Shown: in pieces, positions 12,646-62,738 of the stretch | Layout of the letters: each line of letters opens with the position of its first letter | Numbering within the stretch: the first letter of the stretch is position 1 | Assembly (NCBI GenBank): GCA_918797485.1 | Contig: CAKKNE010000001.1 | Span: 2,728,001 to 2,792,000, forward strand | Reading direction: 5' to 3' | Length of the DNA stretch: 64,000 bases | Source of the DNA: Pelagomonas calceolata | Taxonomy: Eukaryota | The notes under the pieces: generated by a model | Told to the model about the DNA's origin: nothing | Seen by the model: only the letters and a program-made list of their open reading frames with translations | Databases searched by the model: none | Made by a program: the position numbers and the translations under genes

Positions 12646-15600
12646 ATGTTGCAATTGCCCCACAATGTCCAGGTGTGTGGTTTCTGTACCTGCTATCTTT
12701 CGAATAAATCATCTAGACGAGATGGAAAATCCTACCACATTTTTTGCGTCTCATGAAGCAGCATGTGACCTCTTTCGATTATTTTGTTCAAACCGAGATA
12801 AAGAAAGTGGTTGCTGCAGAGCGCCACGGCGCCTACAAATTCAATTCTAAACATTTTTCAACGATACCACTGACAGGCACCAAATCAGACCGTGCGATCA
12901 GAGGTCGATCCAAACTTTTATCTGTCGTACACAGACGTTTATGTTGGATCGCCATCAATTGAAGAAGATGCTTTTACAAGCACAGCTGCAACTCCACTTG
13001 AATGTCGGCTTCGTGACTGTACGTACAGCGCACCCATCTACGTAGACGTAAAGTACCGCCGCGGTCCACAGATTGTGACCACCTCAAAAGTTCCAATAGG
13101 GTGCATACCAATTATGTTGCATTCTTGTAAGTGCGTCTTGTACGAGAAATCGCGCTCTGAGCTAGAAGCTTTAAAAGAGTGCCCTCACGACCCGGGTGGC
13201 TACTTCATCGTGAAGGGTGTTGAAAAGGTCATACTTATGCAGGAGCAACTCTCAAAAAATCGAATGATAATTGAACGTGATGCAAAGGGGGTGTTCTGCG
13301 CAGCTATCACGAGTTCTACTCACGAACGCAAAAGCAGATGCTCCATTGTGGTCAAACCCACATCGCATGGGTATCGGGTGTACCTAAAGCACAACACGTT
13401 GGGCGACGACATTCCAGTTGCGGTTATACTGAAGGCAATGGGGATGGAATGTGACCAGGAAATTGCTGAGTTGGTAGGTTCTGGGGACTGTCGAATTGCC
13501 AGCATCTTCGTGAATTCCATGGAGGAACCTAGTGCAGCTCGCGTGAAAACACAGAAACAGGCACTCGCGTACATTGGTGAAGCGATTCGAGCAAAATATA
13601 AGGCACAATCTGTTGATGGTGTACGGTTTTTACAATATGCCCCACATGGTCGAAGATCTATCTCTGCAGATGAAGAGGCGCGGGATGTCTTGGCTCATGT
13701 CGTACTATCCCATGTGCCTGTAGTAAACTACGATTTTGTTGCGAAGCGTACATACGTTGGCCACGTCACAAAACGTGTAATTGCTGCATTACTTGATAAC
13801 TCACTACTGGACGACAAGGACTACTACGGTAACAAGAGGCTCGAGCTTGCTGGTCAACTACTAAGCCTTTTATTTGAAGATCTTTTTAAGCGATTCAATT
13901 CAGATTTAAAGCGATCAGCTGACCTTGTTTTGCAAAAGCAAAACAGAACGGCTGTATTCGACATTGTGAAATCAACCATTTGGCGTACTGATACACTGGC
14001 CCAGGGGTTTGTGCATGCCATATCAACAGGAAATTGGGTTCTGAAGCGTTTCAAGATGGATCGTGCTGGTGTCACACAGGTCCTCTCGAGGCTGTCATAC
14101 ATATCAGCTATAGGGATGATGACTCGTGTCAACTCCCAGTTCGAAAAAACAAGGAAGACATCGGGTCCACGCGCTTTGCAGCCCTCTCAATGGGGGATGC
14201 TTTGTCCAGCAGACACGCCGGAGGGCGAAACATGCGGCCTAGTTAAAAATTTGGCACTTCTTGCTCATGTTACTACAGATGCTGAAATTGAAACAACAAA
14301 ACGATCCTGCTATGACCTTGGTGTTGAACAACTAGGACACCTAAATGGGACAGCCCTAAACTCACATGCCACTGCTTACCTGGTTTTCCTCAATGGGTTG
14401 GTGATTGGTGCGTGCTCCAGGCCGCACAAATTAGCACACGCGCTGCGTCGGATGCGCCGCTCAAAACGAATTGGCGAACACATCTCAGTCTATACCCATT
14501 CTGTGCATCGAGCAATATATATAGCTTGCGACGGTGGACGTGTCTGTCGTCCATTGATCATCGCTTCTCGCGGCCGTTCCCGGTTGTTGCCCCAAATCCT
14601 CGAACACAAGACACTAAATGTACACATCTTCAGATTAGCTCTCGGTCAGCTGACAGCATCAGGTGTCGTGGAGTACGTCGATGTTAATGAAGAAAACAAT
14701 TGTTTCATAGCACTGGATGAAAATCAGCTCACCCACTGCCATACACATCTAGAGGTCGACCCAGCAACCGTTCTCGGTGTGGTATGTGGTCTTGTTGCAT
14801 TTCCCCATCACAATCAATCGCCAAGAAATACATATCAATGTGCAATGGGCAAACAATCAATGGGATCAGTGGCAACAAACCAGTTCGAACGTATGGACTC
14901 TCTCTTGTATTCTCTCGTTTACCCACAAAAGGCAATAGTCAAGAGTCGCATTCTAGACCTAGTTCACTTCGATGATCTCCCTGGTGGTTGCAACGCAACG
15001 CTAGCTGTTATGTCGTGCTCCGGTTATGACATTGAAGACGCAATAATCCTCAATAAAAACTCGCTTGATAGAGGGTTTTTGCGTTGCCTTGTACTTAAGA
15101 AGCACCAGGCATCTATTCGACGGTCCGTTCATGCCTTACACCCCACGAGGCAGGTAGTTGCATTGATACAGGTATGCTAATGGTACATTTGACCGAACAA
15201 TTGGTCCGCCTCCACTATCTTCGTTTATACAAGGTTATGTCGAGTTGGCTAACTAGATCATACGATTGGAATAGGGATACATGACACCCGATACCAACGT
15301 TATTCCGCACTCGACGATGATGGGATTTGTCTTGTTGGCGAAAGACTCAATGACCAATCAATAATTATCAACCGCGAAGTGCCGATTGAATCTCCTGATG
15401 TTGTTTATTCTTCTGCGAGAGAGAGTCATGCCCAGTGTTGCTGCTTAGTGCCGGCCTTGCACATAAATATCACTGTCAGGGAGTCAAAGTGGCGGATGGC
15501 GGATGTCCACAACTCCAGGATCGCCCGCAAAATTCAAGTCCCAGTCGTGCTCGCATGGAATCTGAGCACTGTTTGATGGTGAGATATGATCTAGACCACA

Positions 15601-17110
15601 GGTACAAAGCACCAGCACCGAGTGTAGTGGACCGTGTGCTCCTCACTGCAAACGAAACTGATCAGTTTTTGGTTAAAGTCATGGTGCGACAGTCTCGTCG
15701 TCCTGAAATTGGAGACAAGCTGGCTACCGGCGTAAGAGAGACAAACAAAATCGGGTTGAGCTAATCAACATTACCCAGGTTTGCAAGCCGCCACGGACAG
15801 AAAGGTGTCTGTGGCGCAATTATATCACAGGTTTCAAAGATTTTTGTGTTATTTTTGTATTTAACATTATGTAATTATTATTATACAGGAGGATATGCCG
15901 TTTACGGATGTGGGAATATGCCCTGATGTAATTATGAATCCTCATGGCTTTCCTAGTCGCATGACAGTAGGAAAAATAATTGAACTTGTTCAGAGAGTGT
16001 GGACGACAATATGGCCGTTGTAATAATGCTTTCCAATAAACACGTAGGTTGCTGGGAAGGCTGGAGTATGTCACGGGCGGCAAGCATTTGGCACAGCATT
16101 TGGCGAGTCTCGCGGTTCTGCAGATCACTCAAAGTAACAATATCCGTGCCTTGCTTACATGGATATCTTTGCTACTACAGGGAAGCATCAAGAGAACTCC
16201 TCGCATATGGGTATTCCTATATTGGAAAAGATTTGCTCTATTCAGGAACCTCCGGCGACCTTTTGAGGGCGTTTGTTTTCATGGGGCCTGTGTTCTACCA
16301 GAAATTAAAACACATGGTCATGGACAAAATGCATTCACGCGCGTACCTTCCCTGTGTGTTTGTCAAACTAAGTCCATTAAACATTAACAGGACTCCACAG
16401 GCGCGGTTCGATTCTGAGTTATATATTGTATATTGTGCTTGTAGATATACAGTTCTTAATCCTTGCTCTTATGTTTATCTAGGTCCGAGAGCACAGTGCG
16501 TCTGCGCAGTCTTGTTCAACGTAATTCATGATTCACTCTTTGATCTAGGCTCACGCGCCAGCCCACCGAAGGGTAATAACACCGCCCTGCGAATGGCCTT
16601 GATTTTTGGCACCTGATTCTCTTCTTTGTAGGCGGTCGCGTGACGGTGGTTTGCGACTCGGTGACGAGACTGCTTTCATGTACATATTTGAGAAGACTTG
16701 CCTTAGGCGAAATGGAGCGTGATTGCCTTATATCATATGGCGCAGCCAACTTAATTACCGAACGACTGATGATCTCATCGGATCAATTTGATGTTCATGT
16801 ATGTGAGTATTGTGGCCTCCTTGGATATTCAACAGTCAGCCTTCACCGAGTGCCAATACTCTCTTCAAGATATATCTCGTTCGGTACAATGCGCACGCAG
16901 GCATCAAGCACTGAGCGCTCTATCTGTACGCGAAGTAGTTGGTGTCAAAAGTGCCGCTCGGATAGTCGCATGGCACAGATTCGCATTCCTTATGCTTGCA
17001 AACTTCTTTTCCAAGGTACGCTGCTTCTAAGCCATGTGTCGGGTAACCTTTGTGTGTCAGAACTCCAATGCATGAATGTTACGCCGCGGTTAAAGTTGGT
17101 GGACATGTAG
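12646..17110 (+). CDS. RPC2: DNA-directed RNA polymerase III second-largest subunit (RPC2), about 15-17 introns
   Basis: Motifs [95 protein letters not shown] and [21 protein letters not shown]. The start codon is approximate. Confidence 0.96.
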
Positions 17111-17595
17111 CCAAACATGTTAGATCATCTTGCATATAGAAATGCGCCATTTTCAGTACAAGACATTGCGTGGGGACTCATAAGCTTAGGAGGGAGGTCA
17201 CGATGCAAGTTCCCCGGGCACTTCCCACCAGTCTTCCCACTAGGGCGAGTACTCAGGGGGTTATCCGCTATGTGAATTCAAGTTTATTATTTATTAATTC
17301 TCGTCCCGAGTCGGCGACTTAAGTGGCGACTTGGAGCATTTCCGACATGGGCCAGGTCAGCGGCGGCCCGGAAGGTCACGATTTAAGTGAGCTAAACCTG
17401 TCTGTTCGCGACACATTTTAGTAAGACCTGCATTTAAAATGCGCGTTTATCTCGGCCGGATCGTTGAGTTAGACCGCGAGCCCACTTACGAAGTTGGCCC
17501 GAAGCTCGCGATCTATCGAAGTGCCGCGGGGTGCGACGAGCGTAGAGGCCGTCGCGGCGAGCTAGGGATGCCAGAGTACAGAATCGACATTCGAT

Positions 17596-21317: not shown

Positions 21318-22530
21318 GACGCTAGGAAATGAAACACACTAGAAATGTAATGTGTACGTTACTTCGCGCGCGTCTCGGATTTGTGATATATCGCGCGAGA
21401 AGCCTTTTTTGCAGTGGAAAGCTCTCCGAGTCGAACTTGAACCAAGCAGCGGCACCGTGACCGTGACCCCTCTCTCACCCCCTAGGTCAACTTGAAGTGG
21501 TAGGGCGGCTTCGTTGCGGCGCACGCGGCACTTTGGCGCGATATATATAGACAGTAGGCCCTGCCGATCTGGCGAATGATAGCTCACGACTGCAAATACA
21601 GCCTGAGGCCGGGCCTCCTGAGGTTTTTGTCACCGTGAACCAGGGCCACTTATCCGATCATGATGGGTTATTAACCCCTGGCGCGGCCCGGGGTCATTAA
21701 CCCAGGTAAATACCCGTCAGTGCCGTCAGGAGCTCCAGTTATAGAGGGGCCTGGGCCACGCCGCGCCGTCGGCGGCGCCATGCCTTGGTGCTTGCCTTCA
21801 AGTTGGCGTACCTGCCAGTGCACGGCACGTAATAGTATGCCAAGGGGCTACTTGCGCGCCTCCGCTCGACCCCGTTTAGTGATTAAAGTACCGGGTGGTA
21901 AATAAATGAAAAATAAATAATTAGAAATCGAGGACGGAGGAGGCAGAGCTCCACCTCACGCCGCTTGGCGGCTTTCGCTCCGCGCCTCCAAGGGATAATA
22001 ATAGGTTAATAACGGGCAATTTACAGGCCCTGTCAGCGGGAACCTAGAACCAGGGAAGCGGGGAGGAAGCGGGCAGCTACTAATAGCTTGAGGAACCGCG
22101 GCGGCCGGAAATCAGCGAGTGGCATTTTCACTGTAGTGCCTACCCAATTAATAATTTACGCCTGGGGGATGCCTGACATTCTGCCGGAACATGGGCCCCT
22201 GAAGAAGCGAGGGCCCGGAAGGGCCGCCCATCAGTCTCAGGCCTGCGGCGGCTACAGTGAGTAGGATAGTAAGCACAATACCGTAGATTCCGAGTCGGCG
22301 TAGAATCAACTACTAGGCTTGGTCACGGTGTATGCCCGCTGTGGGCCTCGGATATTCCTCCTTGAGTTATTCAAGTTTGTCTATTTCAAGTTATTATTTA
22401 TTACTACTAGTAATTCGGAGTGACATATCATTTTGGGTGCCCACAATACCCGGGGCCCGCAAAAGCGAAGTAGTATATTGCCCAGGTAAGGTAAAGTGAT
22501 AGTCGCGGTAAGTATCTCCATGAAGGTGAG

Positions 22531-24371
22531 TTAAAAGAAGCTCGTGCCAACCCTGGAAGTTGTGACCATGTGGTTTGCATCGACGACAGTTGATTGCTCC
22601 ATGCGGTCCATTAGGGTGGTTTGTGGTGGTGCTTTTACTTTTCCATTGACTATTAAGAGTGGGTTAGAAGCTTGCATCACGCTATCGTTGACCGACACAC
22701 CGTCGAAATACTGCTTAAGAATAGCCTGAAGTTCTGTGTTTTCCTGCTCGAGACCCTTCCGCTCGCTCTCGATTGCCAGTTTGTCAAGTAGCACCTTGTT
22801 GTATTTCTGGAGAAATTGGTCTAGGTGACTCCATTTTGGTACAGGGCCTCCATCATGCATCCACGTCGATGTCTGTAAAGCCAGTGCGTTGTGATGCACT
22901 TCAGCCTTACCGCCACTCTCAAAATATGCATGGTCTAGCAGACCAGAGGTATCAGTAGCACGTTTTGCACTCGATATGGCAGCTGTTGGGTTGCTTGGAT
23001 CTATGGTGTTTTGGAAAGGGACGATTTTTTCTTGCTCTGTCTCCATCCTACGGGCCATTTCTGCCAGTACAATAATTCTCTCTGCAAGAACGACTCGTTT
23101 AGATATCTTCTGCTTGCATGTATGTGCATCTTGGGTCAATTCAGCAAGCCGGCAAATCTGGACTCGACGGAACATGTTCATTCGCACCTTGAGCTGTTGA
23201 AAATAGTACAAAACTTTATTTTTTTCGAGCAAGAGAACCTCATTCCGTTGTGCACTCTCTCTTGTGTTCTGCGTGAGCTTGGTGCGCCAGTGATGTAGAT
23301 TTGCCTGTAGACGTTCAATCTTCCTTATCTTGATTTCAATCTCTTTTGATAGCTCCTGGTCCTTCTTTGTATAGTACTTGAAGTCATGAGTTCGTTGATC
23401 TGTGGTTTGGAGATAATTAAGATGAGCAGTTTCAAAATGTTGTTCAAGATCCTCGATCTCTGAATCAAGGCCAATACGGAGCATGTTTATCTCCTCCAGG
23501 TTCCTATTTCGTATCTCCTCGCCCAATTGGTCGTGCTCTTGCTTTGTATCTGCACCGTGCTCTTGTTCCTCTCTATCAATAGCAGCAATGACGTCATGTA
23601 ATTCTCTTTCATTTGCCACATGTTGCTTCACAATGGCCCCCTTTTCTGCTTGGAACTCCACTTCTAAGGTACAAAGCTCGTGTTCGAATTCCTGTTCCGA
23701 CTTCAGTAGTCGAGTATCCTGCAAGTCAATAAGATGGTCTACGTTCTGGAGATGAGATCGCAGCGACATGTGAAACTGCCCTTCAGCTTCTTCCAGGTCC
23801 CGGTCCAGCATCTGAATGATTGCGTCCTTTCGATCAACGTCACGTTCGTGGTTTTGCGAGAGAATTTCAATGCCTTTGCGAAGCGACTCCACCTTCGCCA
23901 GACGCATGATCTTGCGCCACTGATTCTGGATTTTAAGCTGATTTATTTGTGCGTTCGCTCTCTCTTGCTCCATTCGCCGATTCAACTCATTTCGAGCTAC
24001 CTGATATTTTTGGTTCTGCGCGTCATACTCACGCTGCCGCATGAACTTTTCCTCAAGGTCAAGTCCCGGGGTCCGGCCCTTGAGAGACTTCCCCAACAGT
24101 GCTCCTCCAAGCATTCGCGGCAGCAATAATAGAACCGAGCCGTCGGACAGCAGCTCCTCTAGATTGAGTCGCCTTGGACCTCCCAACATCTTTCGAGATG
24201 ATTTGAGTATGTAGTCGAATGTGTTGATCCGTGAAGCCACCATGTCAAGTAAATTGCCCAACGTAGCATTTGGCCCCGTCCGCACAACAAGGTCCTAAGC
24301 GACATTACTCTGAGAGGACTATCGAAATTAGGTTATCTAACCTGCTCACCAAGCTGAACAATCAGCTGCAT
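22531..24371 (-). CDS. DRC2: Dynein regulatory complex subunit 2 (CCDC65/DRC2) with an N-terminal 74-aa ubiquitin-like domain; intron 24295-24341
   Basis: KIQNQWRKIMRLAKVESLRKGIEILSQNHERDVDRKDAIIQMLDRDLEEAE and FLQKYNKVLLDKLAI...LKQYFDGVSVND..NPLLIVN are CCDC65 motifs. A 30-nt first exon (MQLIVQLGEQ) splices in frame. Confidence 0.9.
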
Positions 24372-25175
24372 TCTTTTGCCTCCGCAAACACCGCACGCGT
24401 TGTGCCGCGCAGACGTGTAAGATACACGCGTAAGTAAGGGCATACTGCGGTAAGTAGTGAGCCTGAGAGGTTACCAGAAACCAGTACAATGACAGCAGAG
24501 TAATTAATTGGGGGATCTTTGTTCTTTGCTCAGTTGTAGCCCATACATAAGGCGTGGCCTGGCTTGACTTGAAGGCCGGCCACTTTGGAAGAGCTAGAAG
24601 GTCACGGTCACGGCCCGGGTTAGCCTCAGGCTCCGAGTCAGGCTGAGGAGCCAGCTTGAGCCCGGGCCAGAACTTGAACAGTTACCGTGACCCGAATGGT
24701 ACTGTGCTACTGGCCTCTAGGCTCCCCTCGAGATTGTGACCGGCCACTGAACCTTCCGAGTCAGCGATATTAGCTTTGGTATGTGCGTGCTTGAATCTAA
24801 TGAGCTGGGTGCAGCAACTTGAAGTGCACAATGCAGCTGTTGTAGCTAGGTCTCTCGGGTGTCAATGTGACACGGAGATACCAACAGGAAGGACTCTCAC
24901 TGAAACGTGAGAGTGTCACGGTGGGAACCCCCTCAACTCTGATAAGACAGAATTAGGGGACACCCCCCGTCTCCCTCCCGGCCCTCCCTTTTTGGTGGCG
25001 GGGCTCTTAGGCCTCCCTTTTTGGTTTCGCCCTTTGGGCGACAACAGAGCAAAAGAATAAAATCCCAACTACTAGTCTGTTGCTATTCCACTATTCCACT
25101 ATTCCACATGCTACTAGACCCTACCAGCTGTAGGACTAGGTAGCATGCTACTACTCGCCACCATCCTTTCCTGCC

Positions 25176-28100
25176 ATGCATGTTGATGAAGTATGTAGAG
25201 CACTCTGTGCGACGGTTTCGCCAGACTTGACGCAGCGTTGCGACGCCGAGACGTACTTGAATAATTGCAGACAGACAGTTGGATTTCCGCTTTTACTACT
25301 TCAGCTGGTGCTAGCCGCGTCGGTCTGGGACACCTTGAAACACAAAATCTAGCGGTAGGTGCAGGAGCATTGCAGCGTGAGCGCGAATGAGCAGTCGGCT
25401 GTGATTAGATCATCGGCATAGTCCAGCGTGCGCCCCTGGCTTGTATCTAATTCTTGTCGTAAGAGAGCCTCTGCATGTAGGCAGCAATTTACTTCAAAAA
25501 TTTGATTGAAAAAAGTTGGGAGGCGGATCCAAAGGGAGCAAACGAGATTTTGATGGCTGACGGTGACCGAAATGCGATCAAAGCGCACATAGTAAAACTA
25601 TTGTGTGAATGTGGTTCCTTTGAAGATATACGCCAGCAACTATCTCAAGCCCTGTCTCTGATGGCCGCATCCGATTTCCCAGGAAAATGGGAAAGTTTAT
25701 TGCCAGAAATTGTCAAAAACTTGGAGGGAGGTGATAGAGAGACAACCTCTGGGATGCTCTTAGCAGCGAACTCCATTCTCAAGCGATTTCGGTTTACGTA
25801 TAAATCTGATGCGCTATACAGTGAGCTTAAGTATGTCCTAGGAATTCTGGCGGCTCCACTGACAGCTCTCCTCATGCGACTTGGGCAGGCGTTAGATGTA
25901 GCGGATGACGATCAGAAGTGCTGCAAGGAGGTCTTAGAATCACTCAGGCTTGCTTGCCGCATCTTCTACAGTCTGAACTGGCAGGATTTGCCAGAGTTCT
26001 TTGAAGATCACATGGCAGAATGGATGGGCCAGTTTGAGAAATATCTTGGCTACAAAAGCAAAGCGCCACAGAATGAAGGCGATGATGAGTGCATAGTGCG
26101 CCTTCAATCTGCAATTATGGACAATATATCACTTTATGCCCAGAAGTATGAAGAGGAGTTTACCCCTTTTCTCCCACGCTTTGTTTCTGCGACCTGGCAA
26201 CGCCTTATCAAGTTGGGTTTGTTACCTAAGCATGACCGCCTTGCAGCAGCATCTATTCGTTTTCTTGCAGAAGTCGCTAGTAAGCAGATGCATACGACCA
26301 TGTTCATGGAAGGAAACGCACTAAGCCAGGTAATTGAAGCTATTGTACTCCCCAACATGAGTATTCAGGACTCAGATATTGAACTTTTTGAGGATAGCCC
26401 CCTTGAATATATCTCTCGAGACTTCGAAAGTGCAGACGCCGAAACGCGGCGGCGAGGTGCTTGCGATTTAATTGCTGCCTTATGTAAGCATCACAATGCT
26501 ACAACCACGCGTGTCTGTGTTGATTACATTGCTGCTATGCTCCAGAAGTATGCCGAATCACCATCTGAACATTGGCGTAGCAAGGACACCGCACTTCATC
26601 TCGTTATTTCTCTAACAGGTCGTGCCGAGTCCCCAGCGCGCGGTTCGGACAAATTCCCAGACCAAATAAACTTCATGGAAATGTATTCGTTGCACATTGT
26701 GGGGGAAATTGCAGCTCAAGCTAGCTCCCACCCAATCATTCTTGCTGACGCAATCAAATTTGTTTGTACTTTTCGAAATCATATTCCACCCGAAGAACTT
26801 GTTAAGCTTCTTCCGCTGCTTGGTTGGCGTCTTTGTAATACTGAAGTTGTCATTCGAAGCTATGCTGCTGCCTGCATTGAAAGGATTTTAGCAGCCCCTG
26901 GCAAAATTGCCAAGGATCAAATCGAGCCAATGCTCACACAACTTTTCGAGGCCCTCTTGGTAGTCCCTGAAGTTGCGCTTACTGGAAGTCCTTCGTATTC
27001 AGATAGCATGCCATGGGAGAATGAATATGCCATGAAAGCAGTAATGCGCCTCCTAGTAGCCAGCCAAGAAAGTGTGATTCCCATAGTCAAGAGTATCACA
27101 GAAAAACTCTGCAATTCCCTCACGCGAGCATGCGTTAACCCTGGCAATCCAAGATTTATTCACTATCTCTTTGAATCTCTTGCTATTCTAGTGCGGGTTG
27201 CCTGCAAGGCCGACAGCAGTGGTACCTTGACGAATCAATTTGAGCAGACGTTTTTCCCTCAATTCCAAGTAATTCTCCAGATGGACATTGTCGAGTTTGC
27301 TCCTTACGTTTTTCAGATTCTTGCCCTCATTCTCCGGTATAAGCATGCACTTTCAGATGCCTATGCTTCCCTGCTACCTGCACTTCTGCATCCGGCTCTA
27401 TGGGAGCGCTGTGGCAATGTGCCAGCACTATCTGCTCTTCTAGAGGCCTATCTTGCGGTTGGTGCTGATCAACTTGTTGCGAGTAATCAGCTCGAGCCTA
27501 TACTTGGCGTCTTTCAAAAGCTTCTTGCCTCGAAGTTATCTGAGGCTCACGCGTTTGATCTCTTGAAATCAATCATTCTGCATGTTGATTCAATCGTCGT
27601 TGATCGTTATATCATGACCATTCTGCAGTTGCTTCTGACCCGTCTTCAGCAAGATAGAGATCGCTGTGATTTATGTCACAAAACATTGTCTTTTCTTGGC
27701 CTTCTTGCTGGTAAGCACGGCGGGAAAAGCCTCGCAAATAGTATAGAAAATCAGCAAACCGGCCTTCTCGCTAATCTTATCTTACATGTCTTCGCACCTA
27801 AAATTGCACAGTCAGATATTGCAAATCCGTTCGATGCCAAAGCTATTGTTATTGGAGCCACACGAATTCTTTGTGAGGCACCTGACGTTCTTGTTAATCA
27901 GGGCGACCCCGCTTCCTGGAGAGCCCTAGGTGCCATACTCGTAAAGCTTCTCCGTCAGATTCGTGGGCAGTCCTACACCCCGAATGAAAGCTTTGAGTGT
28001 GCAAAAGAGATTCCAGATGGTCCCATGGCCAGCTACGATGCTACTTTTTCCAAGCTGCACTTTGGCTCAAAGAAGGTCGAGGATGCCTTTTCAGACATCC

Positions 28101-28195
28101 ATGACGTTAAAGAGTTTGCTTCATTCCATCTTCATCAACTTGCCACCCAAAGGCCCCATTTCCAACCACTTGTTTCCACAATTCAGGAACAATAA
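25176..28195 (+). CDS. CSE1: Exportin-2 / CSE1, two 5' introns
   Basis: Importin-beta N-terminal motif AAIYFKN, then KRFRFTYKSDALYSELKYVL, FYSLNWQDLPEFFEDHM, DIELFEDSPLEYISRDFE..TRRRGACDL and NPRFIHYLFES. Confidence 0.95.
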
Positions 28196-33906: not shown

Positions 33907-34685
33907 GAAGAGCAAAAAGGTTAGATTCAGAGTCTTCAGCCGCAATATTCATACCTTGTGAGTCTAGGTCCCAGACCATGACAGGGAATCTTATTGAGAA
34001 ATTCGTGTGTTTGCATTGCAACACGTGCTGCTCGAGCTCAGCTAATTAAACTATTTGATGAGATCGATCCGGGCCGGGTGTTTTTCTCCAAGGAAAACCC
34101 TAGACGACCCACCCTAAGGTGAATTTATGATCTATTGTAGACTCGAAGATCTATTGCGAGCTTCAAGTTCAAGTTCCCGAAACCAGGGTGTGATCGCCTA
34201 CTTGATCGCCTAATCCCGAAACCAGGCTACCGTGACTTCATCAGCCTGAGATTAGAGAAGCCTCCGGCCTAATTTGAACCTCGCGCGGTGATACTTATTG
34301 CTCTTCTCTCTTCGGCAACGTCCAAATTCCAACGCCTTCAAGTCGTGCCACCTTTTTGACCGTGACTAATTGAAACTTGAATTCCAAATTCGAGTCTTCA
34401 CCTACCGTGGCAGCTGGGCCGGTCTCAGGCTGTCTAGTGCGCTAGCATTCAAGTTCCAAGGGCCCGAGTGACGGCGAGTCGTCCGGAGCCTGAGTCCCCC
34501 CGGGTGCGAATGTACTTGGGCTGGTCCAATGAGCCCGCGATCATCGTAAAAAGCGCACTAGCCGGGGGGGGGGGGGAACTACCGTAACAGGTACTCAACA
34601 CTGGCACGGTACTCAACTGTTAGGCCCCGCGGCCCCCGCCCCTCAGGCTTGCCGTAAATTTTCAAGTTTTTCGAATAAGGAAATA

Positions 34686-34961
34686 GACCCATTCTCCATG
34701 AGTCCTAATTAAGATGAATTGCCCTGCGAATCTTAATACTGCGTGGAGACTTCGAAATTCACAGGGGGGTCAAGCGAATCATCATCATCATCATGATAGT
34801 CGACGTTGATTTTCAAGTTGATTTGGCGCGCAATGAGCGTCACGGTAATGCCACGCGCCGACCGAATGGCGGGAAACTTTTGCTGAGGCGCAGGTTCCGT
34901 ATGCTAAAATAATGGGCTGTGCAAAGTTTGGTACCATGCGGGCAGCCTGAGCGACGCGGTG
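34686..34961 (+). repeat. Dispersed repeat R3, copy 1 (inverted copy 56672-56935; partial copy about 58815-59000)
   Basis: About 270 bp of colinear similarity, e.g. ATGAGTCCTAATTAAGAT, GGAGACTTCGAA and GGCGGGAAACTT.TGCTGAGGCGCAGGTTCC. Confidence 0.9.
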
Positions 34962-35393
34962 ATGCCGCATGATGCCAGTGGTCCGAGCCTGAGATAAAAA
35001 CCTGCCCCAAAACCCACTGGCAAACTGGAAAATCGCCCGCCGAGCCTGAGACGTATAAATTGAGCCATAATTACGGAAAATTTTCCTAGCGTTCCATATC
35101 AGTGTATGTTGGTTTTTTTCGCCTTGTAGATCATATCCAGGAGCATCTCAAGATTTGTTGAATCGCCGGTCGATTTTAGCGTGGCCCGGGCGCGCAGCGG
35201 ATATCGTCGTCGCGGCTCCTCAGCGCGGACCTTACTAGGCGCCCCCCCCCTCGGAAGAAGTCTGAGCAGCTTTGTTTTTACATAATTTTAATCCATTCCT
35301 GATGCGCTGGGAGCCCACGGAGAAAGTAGCCCAGTGGAGTCTCCCTTCATTCGGTAATAACGTGGTACACGTAACAATACAACAGGATTGATT

Positions 35394-36894: not shown

Positions 36895-37989
36895 TGACAC
36901 TGGTGGAGAAAAGCATGACTATTTTAGGTTCAAGTTATCAAACCCGAGCTTGGTGTTTTTCCTTCCTAGATTGAACATCGAGGTATTAGTTAGCTGGATA
37001 CCAAGAATGCCCTCAAGATGCGCCTAGATGTCCCAGTCTCGTCGGGTGATGGCAGTCAATACGCACTAGTGCTGACCTAGTTCGTAAATCGTGGGTTTGT
37101 CAATTAAGCAATCTCAGACCCCGCGCCGAGGAAAGCAGTTTGCCACTAGCATTCGGAGGCTTGTACGGTGAAAGATCAGAAAAATTTCCGCCGTGACTAG
37201 ATTAATCTGCTCATTTAAAATTACTAGTGTCGTATGAATAGTAATCATAAACTGAAGCAGGAGAGAGGGCGGATTAAACTGAAGCCTGACCCTGACTCGG
37301 AGCCCGAGGGTCTCGAGTCTGTGCCGAATTCGCTTTAGGCCGTGACCGTGACCGTGACCGTGACTAGTAGATCGCGTTCCGAGTCTGCTGCAGCGGCGGC
37401 GATTGAAAAAGTAACCCCTGCCTGCCAGTCCAGTCTCGGACAGGGCAGAGTACTTCTCGATGGCACTCTACAAACGACTCGGCCAGCGGCCAAGTGGCCG
37501 GGAACACGAATCTGCGAATTATCACGCACCACTCCTCTCGGTCTGTGCGCGCACCGCGCGCACCGAATTGGCAGGGCGCAGATATTACTTGTAGCGACGT
37601 CCCTGCCAGGCTTTTGGGCTGCCCACGGCGTTGCGGTCGCGCAGTCCGGCCTAAATAAAGCCTCGTTTCGGTCACCCACGCAGTCGCCCCATTAGGGCTC
37701 GCCCGACCCACCCACCCAAAACGTTGTACTGCAGGGGAAGGGGTACGCGGCCGCTCAAAACACGTGCGACGGATCAAGGAGTAGAGGAACAACACACCAC
37801 CTGACCGAGGTCGCGGATCGCCGTGATTCCATGCGCGGACGGTTTATTTCGCTACAGTGCCTATCGTGCCCTCGGCGGGGCTTCAAGGTTTTCAAGTTTG
37901 TAGTCCGCGAGAATCAGACAGCCATGCGCCCGCGGTGTGAAAGGGTGGTTCGAGGGGCGCGTCGCGATAGGAGATACGCCCAACGCCGG

Positions 37990-39752: not shown

Positions 39753-40230
39753 TTCACACTATATTTGAGTGTCCAAAATTGGACGACGTCAGAGGAGATT
39801 TCCTCCAGAAACTAGAAACGATCTTCCTCCAGAAACTTCAAGTTGAACTAGAAACGAACGCCGCGACGGATTGTTTGGCTTTATTAATGGGAGATGACCC
39901 GCCCCAGGAGATTGAGAATTCGCTCTATCGTTTCTTGACGTCTCTTTTCAAGCGCCGACTGGGTATCCTAGCCGCGCAGGGAGAAGGCCTCTAGAGATCT
40001 CCGAGTCTCTAGAGGCTCGGTGCTCCGCCGAGTCCTTCAAGTTCAAGTTTTCCTTTAGGATATTCCTTCCTTAATTATATATTAGAAATAGTTGTTAGTT
40101 CTCTGATTGTTGTTGGAAGTACTATAGTGTGTTCCCAGGGGTCTTTTGCTTTTGGCCGGTTTAAATTTTTTCAAGGTTGGCGCGTAGGCTATTGCGCGCC
40201 AGCTCCGCTCGGTGTAGGAATACATTGAGC

Positions 40231-43200
40231 ATGAGAGCGGATCCCATTCCCAAGCCTCCACCAAAACTCGGGATTTCGCATGCAACACGCGAAGAGCGTG
40301 AGTGTTTTACCTTGTTCCAGCAGCACGATGGCAGGAAACGCAAGACTAAGGATATCCCGGGTTGGTCTCCTATTCCGCCGATAGAGTGCCGCGATGGACC
40401 TGATGAAGCATGTAACGAGACAAGCGAGACTAAACAAGGTGAGAAACCCAAGCAGAATGCGTTTGACAGGATCATGACAGCAGACCAAAGGCGACGCTCT
40501 AAAAAGCGAAGCTCAAAGGCAGTAGGTAACCAGGATGCCGAATTTGATCAAACAGAATTCGCATCCAGATATTGGCTAGACGAATCCTTGCCTGTGCTAT
40601 CTCGACCAGAGGAAATATTTGGAGATATTGTCCGGCGCTTCCCCGAGATAAGTGACTTAGCGAGCAAAATGGAAAGACCGTTGCGAGTTGCAACTATGTG
40701 CAGTGGCACAGAAGCCCCACTCTTAGCCTTGGAACTTGTATCGCGTGCCTGTGAAGTTCAAAAAGAGAGCCCCCTCGCAGTTACACACGTCTTTTCAAGT
40801 GAAGTTGAACCTTTCAAGCAGGCTTATATCGAACGTAATTTCGCACCGCCTCTTCTATTTCGGGACGTTCGGGAACTTGGCAGCAGGCAAGCACACACGG
40901 CCTTTGGTTCACTTGAAAATGTGCCGCGTCAACGTGGTGACGTGGATATTCTAGTTGCCGGCACGTCATGTGTTGACTACTCTAATCTTAACACTTGTAA
41001 GAAGACATTAGAGCAGTTAGGGGAATCTGGTCAGACGTTCTATGGCATGTTCGAGTGGGTGCAAAGAGCACGGCCGCCTCTAGTACTTCTAGAGAACGTA
41101 TGTGGCGCACCGTGGAAAGGAATGATTCGAAACTTTGAAGCAATCAACTACCGTGCTCAAGCAGTTCGTCTTGATACCAAGAATTACTACCTCCCTCAAA
41201 CTCGCACTCGAGGCTACCTTCTGGCCATTGCAGACGAAGTGGCATTGCCTGATGTAATTCATCGCTGGGAAAGACAACTCCGCGCTATGGAACGCAATGC
41301 ATCCGCAAGCCTTGAAGCTTTTATGCTTGACGCCCACGATCCACGTGTTCAGGCAGCGCGGGAAGACCTCAGCTACAAAAAGAAAGATAAGGAAGATACG
41401 CCCTGGGACAAGTGTGAGGCGCGACATGCTCGAGTTCGTATTGAGGAAAAACTTGGACAAAAGCGCCCGCTAACTAACTGGGTGCATGGCGTGAATGCTG
41501 CATCTCTGCCGGACTTCGCTTGGCGCGACTGGGCGGGTGCTCAAACAGAGCGGGTTCTCGACAGTATGGATATAGACTACATGCGCCTCGTCAAGCGCCG
41601 CGAAGATGCAAACTTCAAGACAAGTGTGTGGGATTTATCTCAAAATGTAGATCGATCTGACCCGACCAAAGCTAAGCTGGGAATATGTCCATGTCTCACG
41701 CCTTCCTTGTGTGCCTACGTCACTAATCAGGGCCGGCCCGTCGTCGGTGTCGAGACCCTCGCTCTGCAAGGTATCCCAATTGATGACCTCTTGCTCACTC
41801 GTGAGACCGAAGAGAATCTCACCTCGCTCTCCGGGAACGCTATGTCTACGACGGTTGTTGGATCTGCTCTTCTTGCTGCGCTTCTTTCACTTCCCATGGG
41901 CGTCCTTGGGCGCATAGGAATTGTTGATTCAAAAGCCTGCGCAAGACATTTGGACACTAATTATCCAGTCCAACACCATAGCACGCGAGGTAGCGATCGA
42001 CATGCAAATGTTGTAAGATCGCAAGTTCTGGTTCGGGAGCCGCTGGAATTGGGTGCAACAATTCCAAAGTACTTTCAAGGTGCTGGGTCATTCGCGGAAC
42101 GTGTCCTTCACGCCGCTTCCCAGAGCGCCAAGCGGTGCGTCTGCGAGGCTCAGCGGACTAATTCTTCGTCCAGGGTTCTCTACTGCACTGCCTGTGGTCA
42201 CAGCGCTTGCGAGGCATGCGCAGGCAAACCAGAACACACTCAGTACAAAGTGGATTGTCGGGGTCGGGTATCTCCTGAGGAATTTGAGGTTGCTCTTGGG
42301 TTGGCACTCCCAACAATTGTCACTCTTTCTGGCTTGTCGACAGCTTCTCTCTGCAAATTACGCCCAGAAACTGCTGGCCTCTCTCGTAATCTGCCTGCAA
42401 GCAAGAAACGCAAGTCAGAAATGGGTGCTATCGCACAAACTGCCCTCGACGATGAGGTCTGGAGGAGATGGGTTGAAATTGTGTCTCATCTTGACAGAGC
42501 AAGTTTTCGTCTAGTTGAGATGAGACGATGTGTTGAATGTTGGAAAGTACGATACACAGATGCGTCAAGCGCCCTTGTTCTTGAACTGACATTAGGAGGT
42601 GTATATGGAATTGTATGGCATGCATTTGTTGAGCCACCTCGGGGGCGAGGTCCACTGCGAGACCGGCTTGAAGGTTTCGCAGTTCTTCGCGGTTTCGTTG
42701 AGAGTACGGGGGACAGCCTCTTGGATGCCAACTGGAGTTTGCGGCTGCCAATTGATGATGATATTGACCTTGAGCTGAGCTACGATGGGCCTGTGGTAGA
42801 ATCGTTTGCATCATCCTTTGGAATGGAAGATGAGAATATGATCGGCAAACAACGCTATTCACATATCAATGTGAAAGTGCTGAAGGGTGCCTCGTATCTT
42901 GATGAAGATGTATCTGGACGTCGACAACAGCGTCTATGTTTCCCCTTAACCTGCCCCACCACTAGTGCCCCCCTCTCCCTTCATTCAATACACAGCGACG
43001 GCCTTGTCTCACCGGCAATAACCCTGTGTTGTGCAGGTTATGTGCTACTGCATAAATGTGCCGCGCCTTTGGGCTCCCTCCATAAGAGGTTGGGAAACGA
43101 CAGACCAGAACTTTATCTCTTTCTTGAATCCAAGCCTGTTGGTCCTGCAGCATTGGATACCTACGTCTTTGCGCGTGACTGGCGACGTCTTGCTCTGCGC

Positions 43201-46200
43201 GAAGCACGGTCATCACTCGTGTGCTCACTCCAGAGAGGTTGGCACCCACTTGAGTGTACTAAAGATAAGGCCAATGTTACAGAGATTAAGACATCAACTA
43301 TTTTGGGGCGTTGGGTGCCTATTAGTGCTGATATTTCCCAGGTTAATGCGGCCGCATATACAGAGCAAGTTCAAACAGCCATTTCCGTGAACGTTTCCTC
43401 TCCCTGGAACGCAAGTTCCATTCTTGAGATCGCAGTCGATCTCGGGGATCTCTGTGCGACGTCAGTATCGCCTGTCTGGGGGGGGGCATCGACAGTACAT
43501 CCTGAACAGTGGAAGTCGCTCACTCTGAGGGTGGTAGGCGCGTGTGGTGCTGTCGCATCGGCGTCAAAGATGGCCTTAGGGTTTCTGGTACCTCGACTGA
43601 AATTACCAGTGGCACTCTCTGTCTGGCAGACAGTACAAGGGGGGTCCAGACTTGCAGCCAAAGTCCGGGCCGGACTGCCATGTTGCACGACATGTGCTCC
43701 CCTAGCACCAACACTAAGCTGGGTTAAAGTAGCGGGGAAATCGAATCAATTCACCGCCATTGAAGACCCATACCTCGCAGGTGAGTACGAGCGAGCGCTA
43801 AAAAACCGACCCGCCGCCTTCGAACTAGATTCTAAACGCGAAAAACAGCAGAATGCTGATATCGGCTTTCTACGTATCGCCATTAATCCCGTTGCCATTG
43901 CTGTGCGGGCGTTCTCTGCGCTCCCGCGGTTCCTTCAGGCACGAGCTGACGGCGAAGGGAAGGTCCAACTTGACTTTCGGATTGTTAGTAGTAATTTTGG
44001 CAGGACAATGCTGCCCGCTCGCTCATTTTCTCTTTGTAGCAATCGTGTTGACGAACAGGCTCCCCAGACTCCTGGTTTTGGCAATGCAGCATCGGCACTG
44101 CGGCCTGAACAACTTCGGTCATTAACTTGGATGCAGCGCATGGAGGCAACATGTGAGCCCTTTATTGAGGAAGAAGTTGTAGATGAAGCTCTTTCTGTTC
44201 TTGGCTGGCGAGCAGAAGCTCGTGTGCAAATTCCTGTTGTGGTCCGAGGGGGTGTGCTTGCAGATGCGGTTGGCTATGGAAAAACTGCAATTACGCTTGC
44301 ATTGATTGACGCGCAGTGGCGAGACCAAGCCCCAGAGCTCCCTCCACACCTCTTGGGCAAGGCTATTCCCTGTAAGGCCACTCTCGTTATCGTACCTAAG
44401 CACCTCATGGCACAGTGGCCAAGTGAGCTAAGAAAATTCCTCGGTGATCGCTACAAGTGCCTTACGATTATGAGTGTCGGTGATCTAATGCGGCTTACAA
44501 TCCCAAAAGTTCTCGATGCGGAAATCATTATCATGTCGGTGCAGACTTTCAGATCAAAGGCGTATTTTGATCATCTTGCTGAATTTGCCGCGGTCCATGC
44601 TTTCCCGAGCAAGGGTGGGCGGTACTTTGAGGAGGTTCATAGTCGGGCTCTCCAAAACATAGAAAAGTATGTTTCCGCGTTTCAAGCTTCTGGCCAAGCA
44701 GGTCTTGATTCCATGCGAAAGGCTGATAAAAAATCCCTGAGGGTGACACTAGCTGTGAATACTAGTAAGAAGCAAGCCTACGAGAGCGGGGTGCCCCTGC
44801 GGGGGGCGCGTGAATCCAAGGTTGCGCAGAGAAAAAAGTCATCGCCCAGTGTTGTGGAATACTTTTCGTCGGATGATAGTGAACAAGAAGAAAAGGCCTT
44901 TGTCAAACCGAGGGTGGAGTCGGTACGCACTAAGCGCCCTGGTCCAAAGGCACCACCTCTTGAAATGTTTTATTTTGCCCGAAAAGTCGTGGATGAGTAT
45001 ACATACTTGGACCATCGTGATGTTCCAACTGTACAAGCCATCAAGGCACGTTGCTCGTGGGTTCTATCTGGCACCCCACCACTCGAGTCCTTCGATGACG
45101 TTAAGGGCATAGCAGCATACTTGGGAGTGCATCTTGGGGCGAGCAATCCTGTGGTACTCACCAAAAAAGGTGATCGTCCAACTGATTCGCGTAAGGAACT
45201 GTCCAAGTCAGAGCTGTTTCAGGAGTTCTTGGAAGCGAAGTCCCAGTCGTGGCATGCGCGTCGCCAGGATGTTGCACAGAGATTTTTGGACAGATTTGTA
45301 AGACAAAATGTAGCTGAAATAGATGAGATTCGCTTTCAAGCAACAATACAACGGGTAGTTATGCCTGCACCGGACCGTGCTGTGTATTTAGAGCTTGAGC
45401 ATCATCTCCATGCACTCGAAATGCAGAAGGTAAAGGCCGCAGCACGTGGTAAGAAGAAATTCCGTGATAAGAGTGATCGGGAGACCAGACTTTCAGAGGC
45501 TCTGGAAGGGAGCGCCGATGCTGAGGAGGCGCTCCTGAAACGATGTGCACGCCCAGCCTCGGCCCCCAATACGATAATGAATGGTAGTAGTGGCGACGGC
45601 AGCGATGTTACAGCCTGTTCTAACGTTGTGTCTAAGCGCGCTGCGGAGCTGGAGAATTGTGCAACTCAAATTGTCAGGGAGGTTGCTGCAGCACATCGCG
45701 TTGAGGAGGAGATTCGGCGTTGGGCTGCAGTGAGTATGTCCAGGCCTCTCAATGGAGACCGAGGGTGTGATAATATTTTCAAAAAGCACGGGAACAGCAT
45801 GTGGCAAGTTGATGGAGAAAAGAATGCTCGCGGACGGACCAAAAAAAAAGATAAACCTGGCAAACCATTCGATAAATTTACGGGTCACCAACATATGCGC
45901 GAGTGGTGGAACGAGCTAAATCAGGGAATTGGTGACAGTGATGCATCGGCCCAGTTGCTTGCGCTGGCTGCCGAAGGCCTAGCCATTGCAAGTCATAGTC
46001 TTAAAGGCGAGTCACATGAATTTGCATCTGGTATCGTACGTAGTCCCGAAGTAAGAAGAAGATTAGACGCACAGACCCGTCCTGAGATCATCAAGGCAAC
46101 CCGTTGTGTAGATCTTGTCTTTCCTGAACCAATTATTGAGGGCGAATCTGCTCCCGTGAGAAAACAACGGGATGACACTCTCAAAGAGCTTTTCTGGGCT

Positions 46201-47091
46201 CTGCGAAACCAAGTGTATGAACTACGAGCCTTGAACAAAGAGTACGTGGGCAGGACACGTTCCCTCCGATTCTTTCGGGCCATCGAGCAAGCTCAAAGAG
46301 AGTTTGTTGCTTCACAGCCGTTTTCATCATCTGATCAGGCGACTAACGTACAGATTCCACTCACCAATCGAGCCATCTTTTCATGCTGCGGTCATGTTGG
46401 CGAAACCTCAAAGATGCGTGCAGCAGCAGCCCGAGAGGAATGTCCAGCAGCTGGATGCCACGCAAATGTGCGCTCTCATTCTGTTGTGGAATGCGCATCG
46501 CTTTGCCTTAATGAAAGCAACTCAAATGCCAAGGCGGTCACTCATCATGGTGCCAAGCTTGCAGAAATCATAGATCTCGTGAGTGGTTTCCCAAAGGATG
46601 AGCGGGTCCTCATATTTGTTCAATTTGAGGATCTCCTGACCCAAGTACATGCTGTCCTCACTAAGGAGGGTTTCCCAGCGCTGAAGCTAAAAGGTACAGC
46701 TCATCAAATGTCGGCCATAATGTCAAAATTTCAAAAAGCGAAGTTGGGAAAGAATGATGAGCGCATACTTCTTCTAGAACTCCACAACGAGTCTGCATCT
46801 GGTGCGAACCTAACTGCTGCAAATCATGTGATCTTTGTGCACCCACTTCACGTAAGATGCACAGTCTTCCCCTAGTCTCATTTTTATCTTGATTCTTCTC
46901 CCTCTGAAAGTTGATTTACACAGGTCAAGACCTTACAGAATTACGTCATGTGTGAGACTCAGGCCATAGGGCGTGTTCGTCGTTATGGACAGCGGAAAAT
47001 TGTCCATCTTTACCGGTTCCTCGTCGATGACTCGATTGACATCAAAATATACAAACGTCGATGTGATGAGCAGGCAAAGCGTTTTCGTTGA
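40231..47091 (+). CDS. DNMT5: DNMT5-type C5 cytosine DNA methyltransferase fused to an SNF2 ATPase; introns 46852-46923 and probably 42920-43036
   Basis: MTase motifs LRVATMCSGTEAP, AGTSCVDYS, LENV, YYLPQTRTRGY and GNAMSTTVVG. SNF2 motifs GGVLADAVGYGKT, VVDEYTY, WVLSGTP, SGANLTAANHVIFVHP and QAIGRVRRYGQ. Confidence 0.95.
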
Positions 47092-55942: not shown

Positions 55943-56671
55943 GGGTCCGCCCCACGCGAGCCCCAGGTGTTAGTATAGCGCAATGCTGCTGTGGGTGGCG
56001 ATGACATCTGTGCACGGGCATACGTCCTGTGTCAATACGCACCGTATAGTACGATGCTCACTCAGCGACTTCATCATCTGTTGCCATCTCCTCTGTCCCA
56101 GCCATGGCAGATATATATCCGAGTCGCATACGAGCTGTATCTAACACCACAGAGCCCGCACGCGGATTTTAGGACCGATCCGCATTACCTCTCAAAAATC
56201 ATGATCCACATAATGATGATGACTTCGGTAACCCGCCGGCGGCCGTGAAGGATGAATCCCCTCCCTCAGGCTCTCTGCCCGCCCCCGATCATTTTGCCAA
56301 GTTGGTTTCTTTGCCGCCGCGGGTTGATACGTAGTACAGCACCGCCGATTGTGCCGATTGTGGCTTCTGGCGGGTTGCACTTGTCCTTAGTCCGTAACAC
56401 CTGATGAATCGAGTGACCAACAAAGTGCGATTTTTGTAGAGTGTTTGATGACGTAGCCTCCTCCTCCTACCAAACAAAACACTGGCGTTGCTAGCAGGCA
56501 GTACTAGTATGTTCCTGCCTGATTTGGAGAAAATTCTGGTTCCACCCAATCCCCGGCTTAGCAACGGAATTCCTCTTTGAGCCCTATATAGATAGGCAAC
56601 GTTAGGCAATAACGTAATTATGGTTCAATTTGTACGTGGCGATGTTGGGTCGGGTTTATCCGGGACCCTCG

Positions 56672-62197: not shown

Positions 62198-62738
62198 GTT
62201 CACCTCGCTCTCGGTGGGCTCGTGGCCCACCACGAACGGCTCGCCGGCGGGTCCGACTCGGAGTCCCCCTAATTTCAAGTGAGCCTGAGCCTCTGAGATC
62301 ATTCGAGTTCCCTGCCACTTGGTGGCGGCGATTTTCTGGCTACGGGGTCCCAAAGGGTCCCTTTCTATGGCGCCGGGACCGGGGGGAAGGGGCCACCTTG
62401 AAAAATAACTATAGTCAATTCGGGTTTTGGGGTTACGGCCTCGGCCTAGCTAGCTTTGGTTCCTGCGGTTGCGTAGGTCAGTAGGATAGGATAGCCAGGA
62501 TCTGGCCTGGGGAGGGTTTTCGGGGGAGTCCCCCGCGAGCGTGTACGTGAGCTTGCTGCCGGTCGTAGAAGCGTGCGTCGTCGTCGCCGTGCCCGGGCCG
62601 CCGACGAGCCGGAGGCCGTCGATCTTGATCCGGGCGTACTCGCGCGCCGTCTAAGGGGCTTTGCCATCAGATTCTGGTGCTAACGTGCGGGTATTTCAGG
62701 CGCCTCTAGAGATCTCTAGAGGGCCAGCTCAATAAGCG

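Follow-up and report, generated by a model that had tools for sequence, protein, structure and literature searches.

Results

One exact six-base insertion recurs throughout the intergenic DNA

One exact six-base insertion occurs again and again in the intergenic spacers of the 64,000-nt stretch of DNA analysed here (hereafter the window), and some places consist almost entirely of it. A preliminary description of the DNA had singled out strings that collapse to a single dinucleotide when conforming hexamers are repeatedly removed. These reductions imply the rule XY → XY-C-rc(XY)-G-XY, a 6-nt insertion into any dinucleotide, where rc(XY) is the inverted complement of XY. The motif is strand-symmetric and reads identically on either strand. 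The window contains 140 8-mers that obey the rule, compared to 14-49 for each of the 15 other pairs of centre letters. XY flanks both sides in 140 of 140 rule 8-mers, and a central dinucleotide that is the inverted complement of the flank at the junction is the sole enriched arrangement. Versions of the rule built on words of 1, 3, or 4 nt, or on other spacers, remain at background level in the window. A scan of the family XY-C-N(0-8)-G-XY for longer or shorter footprints shows enrichment at an inner length of 2 alone (717 vs ~500), with inner lengths 0, 1, and 3-8 at background. All 16 dinucleotides serve as targets; AA/TT, AC/GT, and AG/CT are favored, CG and GC are avoided, and the bases immediately outside XY are enriched in C/G. 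The CC, GG, and GC classes are slightly raised, and we considered whether they represent a second rule; this was rejected, as they are triplet microsatellites or by-products of tandem scars.

Comparison of nesting depth with shuffled DNA, proposed in the preliminary description as the way to judge its nests, bears them out. A parser that iteratively deletes rule-conforming hexamers recovers 148 events in the window (139, 8, and 1 in successive rounds), while 100 dinucleotide shuffles yield a mean of 15.6 (sd 4.0, maximum 28). Nine of these events are exposed only after the first deletion, compared to a shuffle mean of 0.01 and a maximum of 1. The excess of rule strings is therefore real and well beyond what chance would give.

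The window is eukaryotic nuclear DNA of ~49% GC, and its sequence is matched in contigs of cultured ‘organism A’ and in marine metagenomes from several studies. It encodes eIF3h, an AP-complex mu subunit, and a calpain-like protein, together with the following:

12892-17110: Rpb2, split by introns into at least four ORF pieces
22531-24285, minus strand: dynein-regulatory-complex type protein (domain scan)
25502-28195, plus strand: Cse1/CAS exportin (domain scan)
40177-46875, plus strand: C-5 cytosine methyltransferase and SNF2-type ATPase fusion, a 2232-aa intron-free ORF

The exportin’s nearest named homologues are from Aureococcus (50%) and Chrysophaeum (47%), which places the source among pelagophyte-like stramenopiles. 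The methyltransferase fusion has what we take to be a DNMT5-like architecture. tRNA and Rfam scans of the window returned no match. A single island of 64% GC, at 54001-56000, matches the position of a TPR-containing ORF (679 aa, minus strand).

Nested insertions build a 47-nt string from a five-base core

The stretch flagged in the preliminary description lies in a 1.2-kb gap between the divergently oriented ORFs at 22531-24285 (minus strand) and 25502-28195 (plus strand). Its elements, and two smaller nests elsewhere, are as follows (no strand assigned):

24601-24620: left nest, GT plus three rule insertions (two GT steps in tandem and one GG step inside the second unit)
24622-24647: right nest, AG plus four rule insertions (AG, CT twice, and TC nested)
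24653-24660: decayed scar AGCTTGAG, one C>T change from AGCCTGAG
24661-24691: three single scars, CCCGGGCC, AACTTGAA, and ACCGTGAC, starting at 24661, 24671, and 24684
62252-62265: two-step nest TCC[GACTCGGA]GTC, reducing to TC
442-455: two-step nest GCCGC[GGCCCGGG]C, reducing to GC, with an outcome that varies with the order of removal

Every string quoted in the preliminary description is present where it had been placed, including the three single scars downstream of the nests. Reduction traces collapse the left nest to GT in three steps, the right nest to AG in four steps (CTCAGGCT, TCCGAGTC, CTCAGGCT, AGCCTGAG), and 62252-62265 to TC in two. The claimed reduction of 442-455 to GC holds in part: it succeeds if the inner GGCCCGGG is deleted first, but a left-first parser stops at GCCCGGGC.

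To compare alleles, we used metagenome contigs bearing the same exportin. These comprise nine same-species contigs (96-99.5% identical), a 92% sister, a clade at 56-57% (the identity figure here being that of the exportin protein), and many distant relatives. The flagged nest exists in five allelic forms (window, L003-type, L006, L011, and X15), each of which reduces to GT-T-AG. The X15 form carries one extra GGCCCG within the nest. In the L003-type form, the first GT unit has a TC step inside it, TT has been inserted, and an AG scar has decayed; these alleles also have an intact AGCCTGAG at the position of the window’s decayed scar. The L006 form combines GT ×3 and AG ×2 with nested CT and TG, and the L011 form combines GT ×3 and a nested CA with AG ×2 and TG. 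The corresponding right-nest strings are AGCCTGAGCCTCAGGCTGCCAGTGAG (L006), AGCCTGAGCCTGCCAGTGAG (L011), and AGTCTGAG (L003 type).

Since the 47-nt nest of the window reduces to GT-T-AG, 42 of its 47 nt are inserted material, in agreement with the earlier proposal that the process builds new sequence de novo. The differing routes by which the alleles arrive at one core imply at least 13-15 separate events on ~14 bp of core, and the five forms around that core substantiate the earlier claim that the same few base pairs are hit repeatedly. Haplotypes bearing different nest forms differ by a few percent in their flanks. The window’s nest allele is unchanged in six contigs (X3, X4, X6, X9, X13, and L012; X10 does not span the nest), so the nest is not hypervariable on short time scales. 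Nests are stable haplotypes that differ between populations.

Two further observations concern this locus. L006 alone carries a ~190-nt MITE inside ACCGTGAC (L006 8110-8303; window 24686-24691) with TGCGA(T/A)AAT inverted ends and a 5-bp duplication, CCGTG; we rejected this element as a donor of the scars, as it is unrelated and its duplication is 5 bp long. Short contigs in X9 and X10 match only window 24600-24641 (42 nt, 8 differences) and have unrelated flanks. They come from elsewhere or from another organism, and scar-built sequence can look alike at unrelated places.

Alleles differ by clean, recent six-base insertions

Clean pairwise alignments of the same-species contigs to the window contain six-nucleotide gaps in 18 rows, corresponding to 17 unique events. 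Twelve follow the rule strictly and three follow it with a neighboring difference; the remaining two are a one-mismatch variant (AGCCCGAG) and an unrelated event. An orthologous allele with a single XY exists at 15 of the 17 polymorphic sites, and the short alleles lack the C and G of the rule. Insertion of 6 nt, and not substitution, therefore gave rise to the strings. Alignment of orthologous spacers had been suggested beforehand as a means to find shorter intermediate alleles; these were found, and an origin by substitutions is contradicted.

The window differs from L011 by 11 rule events per 151 SNPs, from L002 by 3 per 23, and from L012 by 1 per 8, a rate of approximately one rule event per 8-14 SNPs. 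Scars are present both ways, with some sites scarred only in the window and others only in another allele; the scar at 21797, for example, is missing in X6 and X15. The remaining small indels consist of slippage in homopolymers or microsatellites and of various complex events, and the same-species alignments reveal no second recurrent class among them. In a multiple alignment of ten alleles, which is noisy in spacers, the strict rule accounts for 8 of 654 gap blocks, a figure that understates the signal because complex nests are split over many blocks. The insertion process is real, precise, ongoing or recent, and recurrent at the same spots between populations.

These alleles bear directly on the proposal that the motifs are functional sites under selection, such as factor-binding palindromes, or an artifact of composition or assembly. 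Their intergenic location near gene ends would suit such a reading. However, 16 different words share nothing more than an abstract rule, the motifs arise as clean 6-nt insertions, block-wise dinucleotide shuffles fail to yield them, and identical alleles occur in independent assemblies from several studies. We therefore regard selection or artifact as scarcely credible, and the allele data contradict it.

Insertions concentrate in short patches outside coding DNA

Domain-supported coding DNA is at chance level, with 7 rule matches in 25.6 kb where the 15 other classes average 8.1, and the remaining 38.4 kb contains 133. The Rpb2 inter-exon gaps (918 nt) hold no rule matches, although the spacers on either side do carry scars. 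Seventeen patches of 48-1029 nt, totaling 5.6 kb, hold 115 of the 140 matches at a density of ~20 per kb, compared to 0.24 per kb by chance. Almost every intergenic spacer has such a patch, and patches occur 5′ as well as 3′ of genes. Examples include (no strand assigned):

21425-22412: two adjoining patches, 15 scars combined, several polymorphic
24460-24922: hot patch around the flagged nest, 11 perfect scars in 463 nt
34162-35190: largest patch, 21 scars
37345-37364: triple tandem AC(CGTGAC)×3, with rule matches at 37345, 37351, and 37357

In the first of these, 6-nt presence/absence differences occur at 21656, 21797, 21813, and 22289, and a scar at 22120 exists only in alleles other than the window’s. 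The hot patch has polymorphic scars at 24463, 24755, 24816, and 24915, and the largest patch at 34671, 34748, 34812, 34944, and 34973. A self-BLAST of the window finds few repeats, and 24674-25007 is single-copy within it. This stretch and 21668-22168 reach 5-25 times the surrounding contig depth in four runs, indicating that both belong to dispersed repeat families; other copies lack the scars at 24816 and 24915.

We re-placed events around the observed sites in 60 simulations per setting. The nine hidden nested events compare with 1.0 when placement extends over ±2 kb (0 of 60 simulations reach nine) and with 4.2 at ±150 nt (3 of 60); their number is reproduced only when placement is confined to ±25-50 nt. 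The eight tandem re-hits compare with 0.4, 2.1, and 3.1 over three placement ranges (reached in 0, 0, and 1 of 60) and are still in excess at ±50 nt. The preliminary description had proposed extreme local hotspots or a process that re-targets its own scars, and the observed clustering is indeed too tight for random placement except where events are restricted to ~25-50 nt. These data cannot separate a hot patch from genuine re-targeting of scars, and slippage during replication could have contributed some tandem steps.

Slippage of a 6-nt unit, as in a microsatellite, would account for arrays: the window contains eight tandem pairs and one triple, the tandem steps exceed random re-hits, and alleles differ as GT ×2 vs GT ×3. 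It cannot give rise to a first copy, given that the short alleles consist of a single XY with no C or G, and it explains neither the nested insertions of a different dinucleotide type nor the ~120 singletons, which span all 16 types. As a sole cause, slippage is refuted by the singleton and nested alleles. It is thus a very improbable source of the signal, though it may add some tandem steps.

The distances separating mini-clusters of scars (window, L018, and L010) tend weakly towards 70, 150, and 215 nt, with troughs near 100 and 180; these tentative peaks (~20 vs ~9 pairs) may reflect chromatin spacing. Relative to five other alleles, the window has 12 extra nt in an (ATC)n microsatellite at 34778-34789, which adjoins a ATCATGAT scar. 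At 24954, the window lacks ~846 nt present in L012 (3259-4103), X3, and X15, the last two with loose ends. AATT lies on both sides of this break and there are no inverted ends, while L006, L011, and L003-type alleles have other lengths; a microhomology deletion in the window is a more likely cause than a mobile element.

The same rule operates in divergent lineages

Using z scores from block-wise dinucleotide shuffles, we find the rule strings at z = 33 in the same species and 12 in the 92% sister. Within the 56-57% clade, z is 18-31 in L013, L014, and L018 and 4.7 in L015. It falls to 2-5 in a few intermediate lineages and to ~0 in distant relatives. The 56-57% clade is polymorphic too, with two of two six-nucleotide allele differences obeying the rule, and its target spectrum matches that of the window (Spearman 0.79, p = 0.006). 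The shared rule and target spectrum indicate that one agent, or one kind of agent, has been active in both lineages. Persistence of the rule across this distance is as readily explained by a host enzyme as by a transposon family, if not more so.

Discussion

A proposed hairpin-based excision footprint as the best-supported mechanism

We tentatively interpret the scars as excision footprints of a low-copy cut-and-paste transposon that has C...G ends, duplicates 2 bp of target, and leaves by way of a hairpin on the flanking DNA. We give this mechanism, the best supported of those considered, a probability of roughly 40%. An element with 5′-C...G-3′ ends would insert by a 2-bp staggered cut, thereby duplicating XY. 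During excision, a nick in the non-transferred strand, one base inward from each end of the element, would leave the flanks with ...XY-C. The 3′-OH of the flank would then attack the opposite strand, closing a hairpin with the C at its tip, and off-center opening of this hairpin would leave ...XY-C-Y′X′ tails on both flanks. The tails would share only 2 nt of complementarity, derived from the target duplication, and their annealing and fill-in would generate XY-C-Y′X′-G-XY. Nests and tandems would build up as the element repeatedly inserted into accessible 25-50-nt patches, or into the scars, which are themselves rich in palindromes.

Each part of the rule has a counterpart in transposition: the bracketing XY...XY would be the target duplication, the C and G would each be a terminal base of the element left behind on one side, and the central dinucleotide would be the hairpin-derived inverted copy. 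The hairpin model accounts for an inverted copy exactly as long as the duplication, a unique product, and a strand-symmetric motif. The nick exactly one base inside the element is an assumption of the model, and it is known for none of the families that we checked.

Several observations count against the footprint model. The product is uniform, a single form with no spectrum of variants, and footprints produced by ordinary end joining are usually heterogeneous. No donor element with C...G ends and a 2-bp duplication was found in ~0.3 Mb. Among inverted repeats of at least 10 nt that start with C, 20 of 391 (5.1%) have a matching 2-bp flank, compared to 6.25% by chance, and none of 18 large presence/absence polymorphisms combines C...G ends with a 2-bp duplication. 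At the 17 polymorphic 6-nt sites, only empty and scar alleles were seen and no occupied allele, in a sample of few alleles and of contigs that drop rare variants. A Pfam search of 66 ORFs in the window identified no transposase domain. The GGTTATTAACC repeat family was considered as a donor candidate and rejected, as it shows no clear duplication. Taken together, the uniform product and the lack of an element, an occupied allele, or a transposase in the DNA surveyed constitute real evidence against the model. The negative search for an element is in itself weak evidence: approximately one scar per 10 SNPs would arise from a handful of copies excising at ~1e-4 per generation, and if a few copies per genome suffice, no copy is expected in ~0.3 Mb.

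A possible host-encoded break-and-repair process

A break-and-repair process run by the host or by a domesticated transposase, with no mobile element involved, is the main rival, possible but doubtful. Accessible hot spots in intergenic DNA would be cut by a nuclease with a 2-nt stagger, and an untemplated C would be added to each 3′ end, for instance by a Rev1-like deoxycytidyl transferase; the ends would then fold back or close as a hairpin, copy XY, and pair through those two nucleotides. Such a process would give a unique product and would account for the element, occupied allele, and transposase all being unseen (in ~0.3 Mb, 17 sites, and 66 ORFs, respectively). It would also suit a rule and target spectrum common to lineages that are 56-57% identical and a patch in nearly every intergenic spacer, 5′ and 3′ of genes, and the strand symmetry would fit equal addition at both 3′ ends. 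Against it, the constant C and G have no recognized source, and we know of no repair pathway that adds a constant C and then copies exactly two nucleotides in reverse. A fold-back with a 1-nt turn is probably an unlikely substrate for a polymerase, known templated insertions are variable in length and without constant bases, and our analysis did not identify a candidate enzyme. If this reading is nonetheless correct, which we consider unlikely, the scars would record a previously undescribed enzyme-driven process. In it, a host or domesticated hairpin-forming nuclease would open accessible intergenic DNA at any dinucleotide and reseal it with a fixed six-base ‘zig-zag’. The process would be deeply conserved in pelagophyte-like lineages, would run at about a tenth of the point-mutation rate, and would continually create intergenic sequence from nothing.

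Whichever agent is responsible, the scars constitute a mutational signature of unusual precision and rate in a marine algal lineage, the DNA of which is also found in metagenome contigs of eight further studies (runs X4-X15). One exact 6-bp product makes up nearly all 6-nt indels and, in some patches, most of the sequence, providing an allele-by-allele view of how non-coding DNA near gene ends is built de novo by stacked scars. A transposon as agent would be a very active one that has escaped notice and whose visits can be counted from its scars; a host enzyme would carry out a new kind of DNA break and repair reaction. Nests that are stable within populations and different between them could serve as sharp strain markers for ocean metagenomes.

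Comparison with known transposition and repair systems

P nucleotides of V(D)J coding joints are palindromic. According to the available portions of a published account (PMC5499845), the transposases of hAT, Transib, RAG, and MULE close the flanking DNA into hairpins that host enzymes open, and joining leaves footprints. The footprints of these hairpin formers resemble the scars described here in that a duplication brackets a few residual bases (PMC5499845, same portions), an inverted copy of the flank lies beside the break as from a hairpin opened off-center, and the scar marks a site that was hit and then left. They differ in that the duplication is 5-9 bp there and 2 bp here. The scars described here also have one constant base per side and one product instead of a spectrum, and they reach ~20 per kb in patches with no element seen.

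CACTA/Mirage/Chapaev (CMC) elements have CAC...GTG ends and target duplications of 2-4 bp (2-3 bp in CACTA/Mirage). To our knowledge, no other superfamily satisfies both constants of the rule, namely a first base of C with a last base of G and the duplication length. However, no CMC element or transposase was found in the sequence scanned (inverted repeats and 66 ORFs), and our literature searches turned up no CMC footprints of this kind.

Tc1/mariner elements leave a rather uniform footprint of TA, end bases, and TA, with a 2-bp duplication. The scars share with these a 2-bp duplication and a uniform footprint with retained end bases, but any dinucleotide is targeted (TA in 7 of the 140 rule 8-mers) and the inner two bases follow the flank and not the element. 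A Tc1-like DDE transposase is the only DNA transposase among the genes listed for a sequenced pelagophyte in the accessible part of a supplement (PMC9481584, supplement 4).

Introner elements and MITEs are non-autonomous DNA transposons of pelagophytes and other algae that insert into accessible DNA; the portions of the introner paper at hand give element sizes from tens to hundreds of bp with duplications of 3-9 bp, and the words ‘excision’ and ‘footprint’ do not occur in them (PMC9860276). The scars differ in their 2-bp duplication and 6-nt insertion. A description of the rule was not found in full-text literature searches or in the supplements, as far as these could be accessed. The available portions of the Pelagomonas genome paper report troughs of 52% GC, interpreted as centromeres, in a genome with 63% GC and contain no mention of a short motif (PMC9481584).

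Insertions templated by polymerase theta are likewise short and copied from the adjacent flank, sometimes as the reverse complement. They are variable in length and source and have no constant bases, in contrast to the fixed 6-nt length and fixed C and G found here. One insertion in the window has another shape: at 17313-17324, a 12-nt insertion gives GGCGACTT-AAGT-GGCGACTT, compared to GGCGACTT in L003 and L008. Here two direct copies enclose an inverted one and C/G spacers are lacking, so that the insertion resembles a templated one of the snap-back type.
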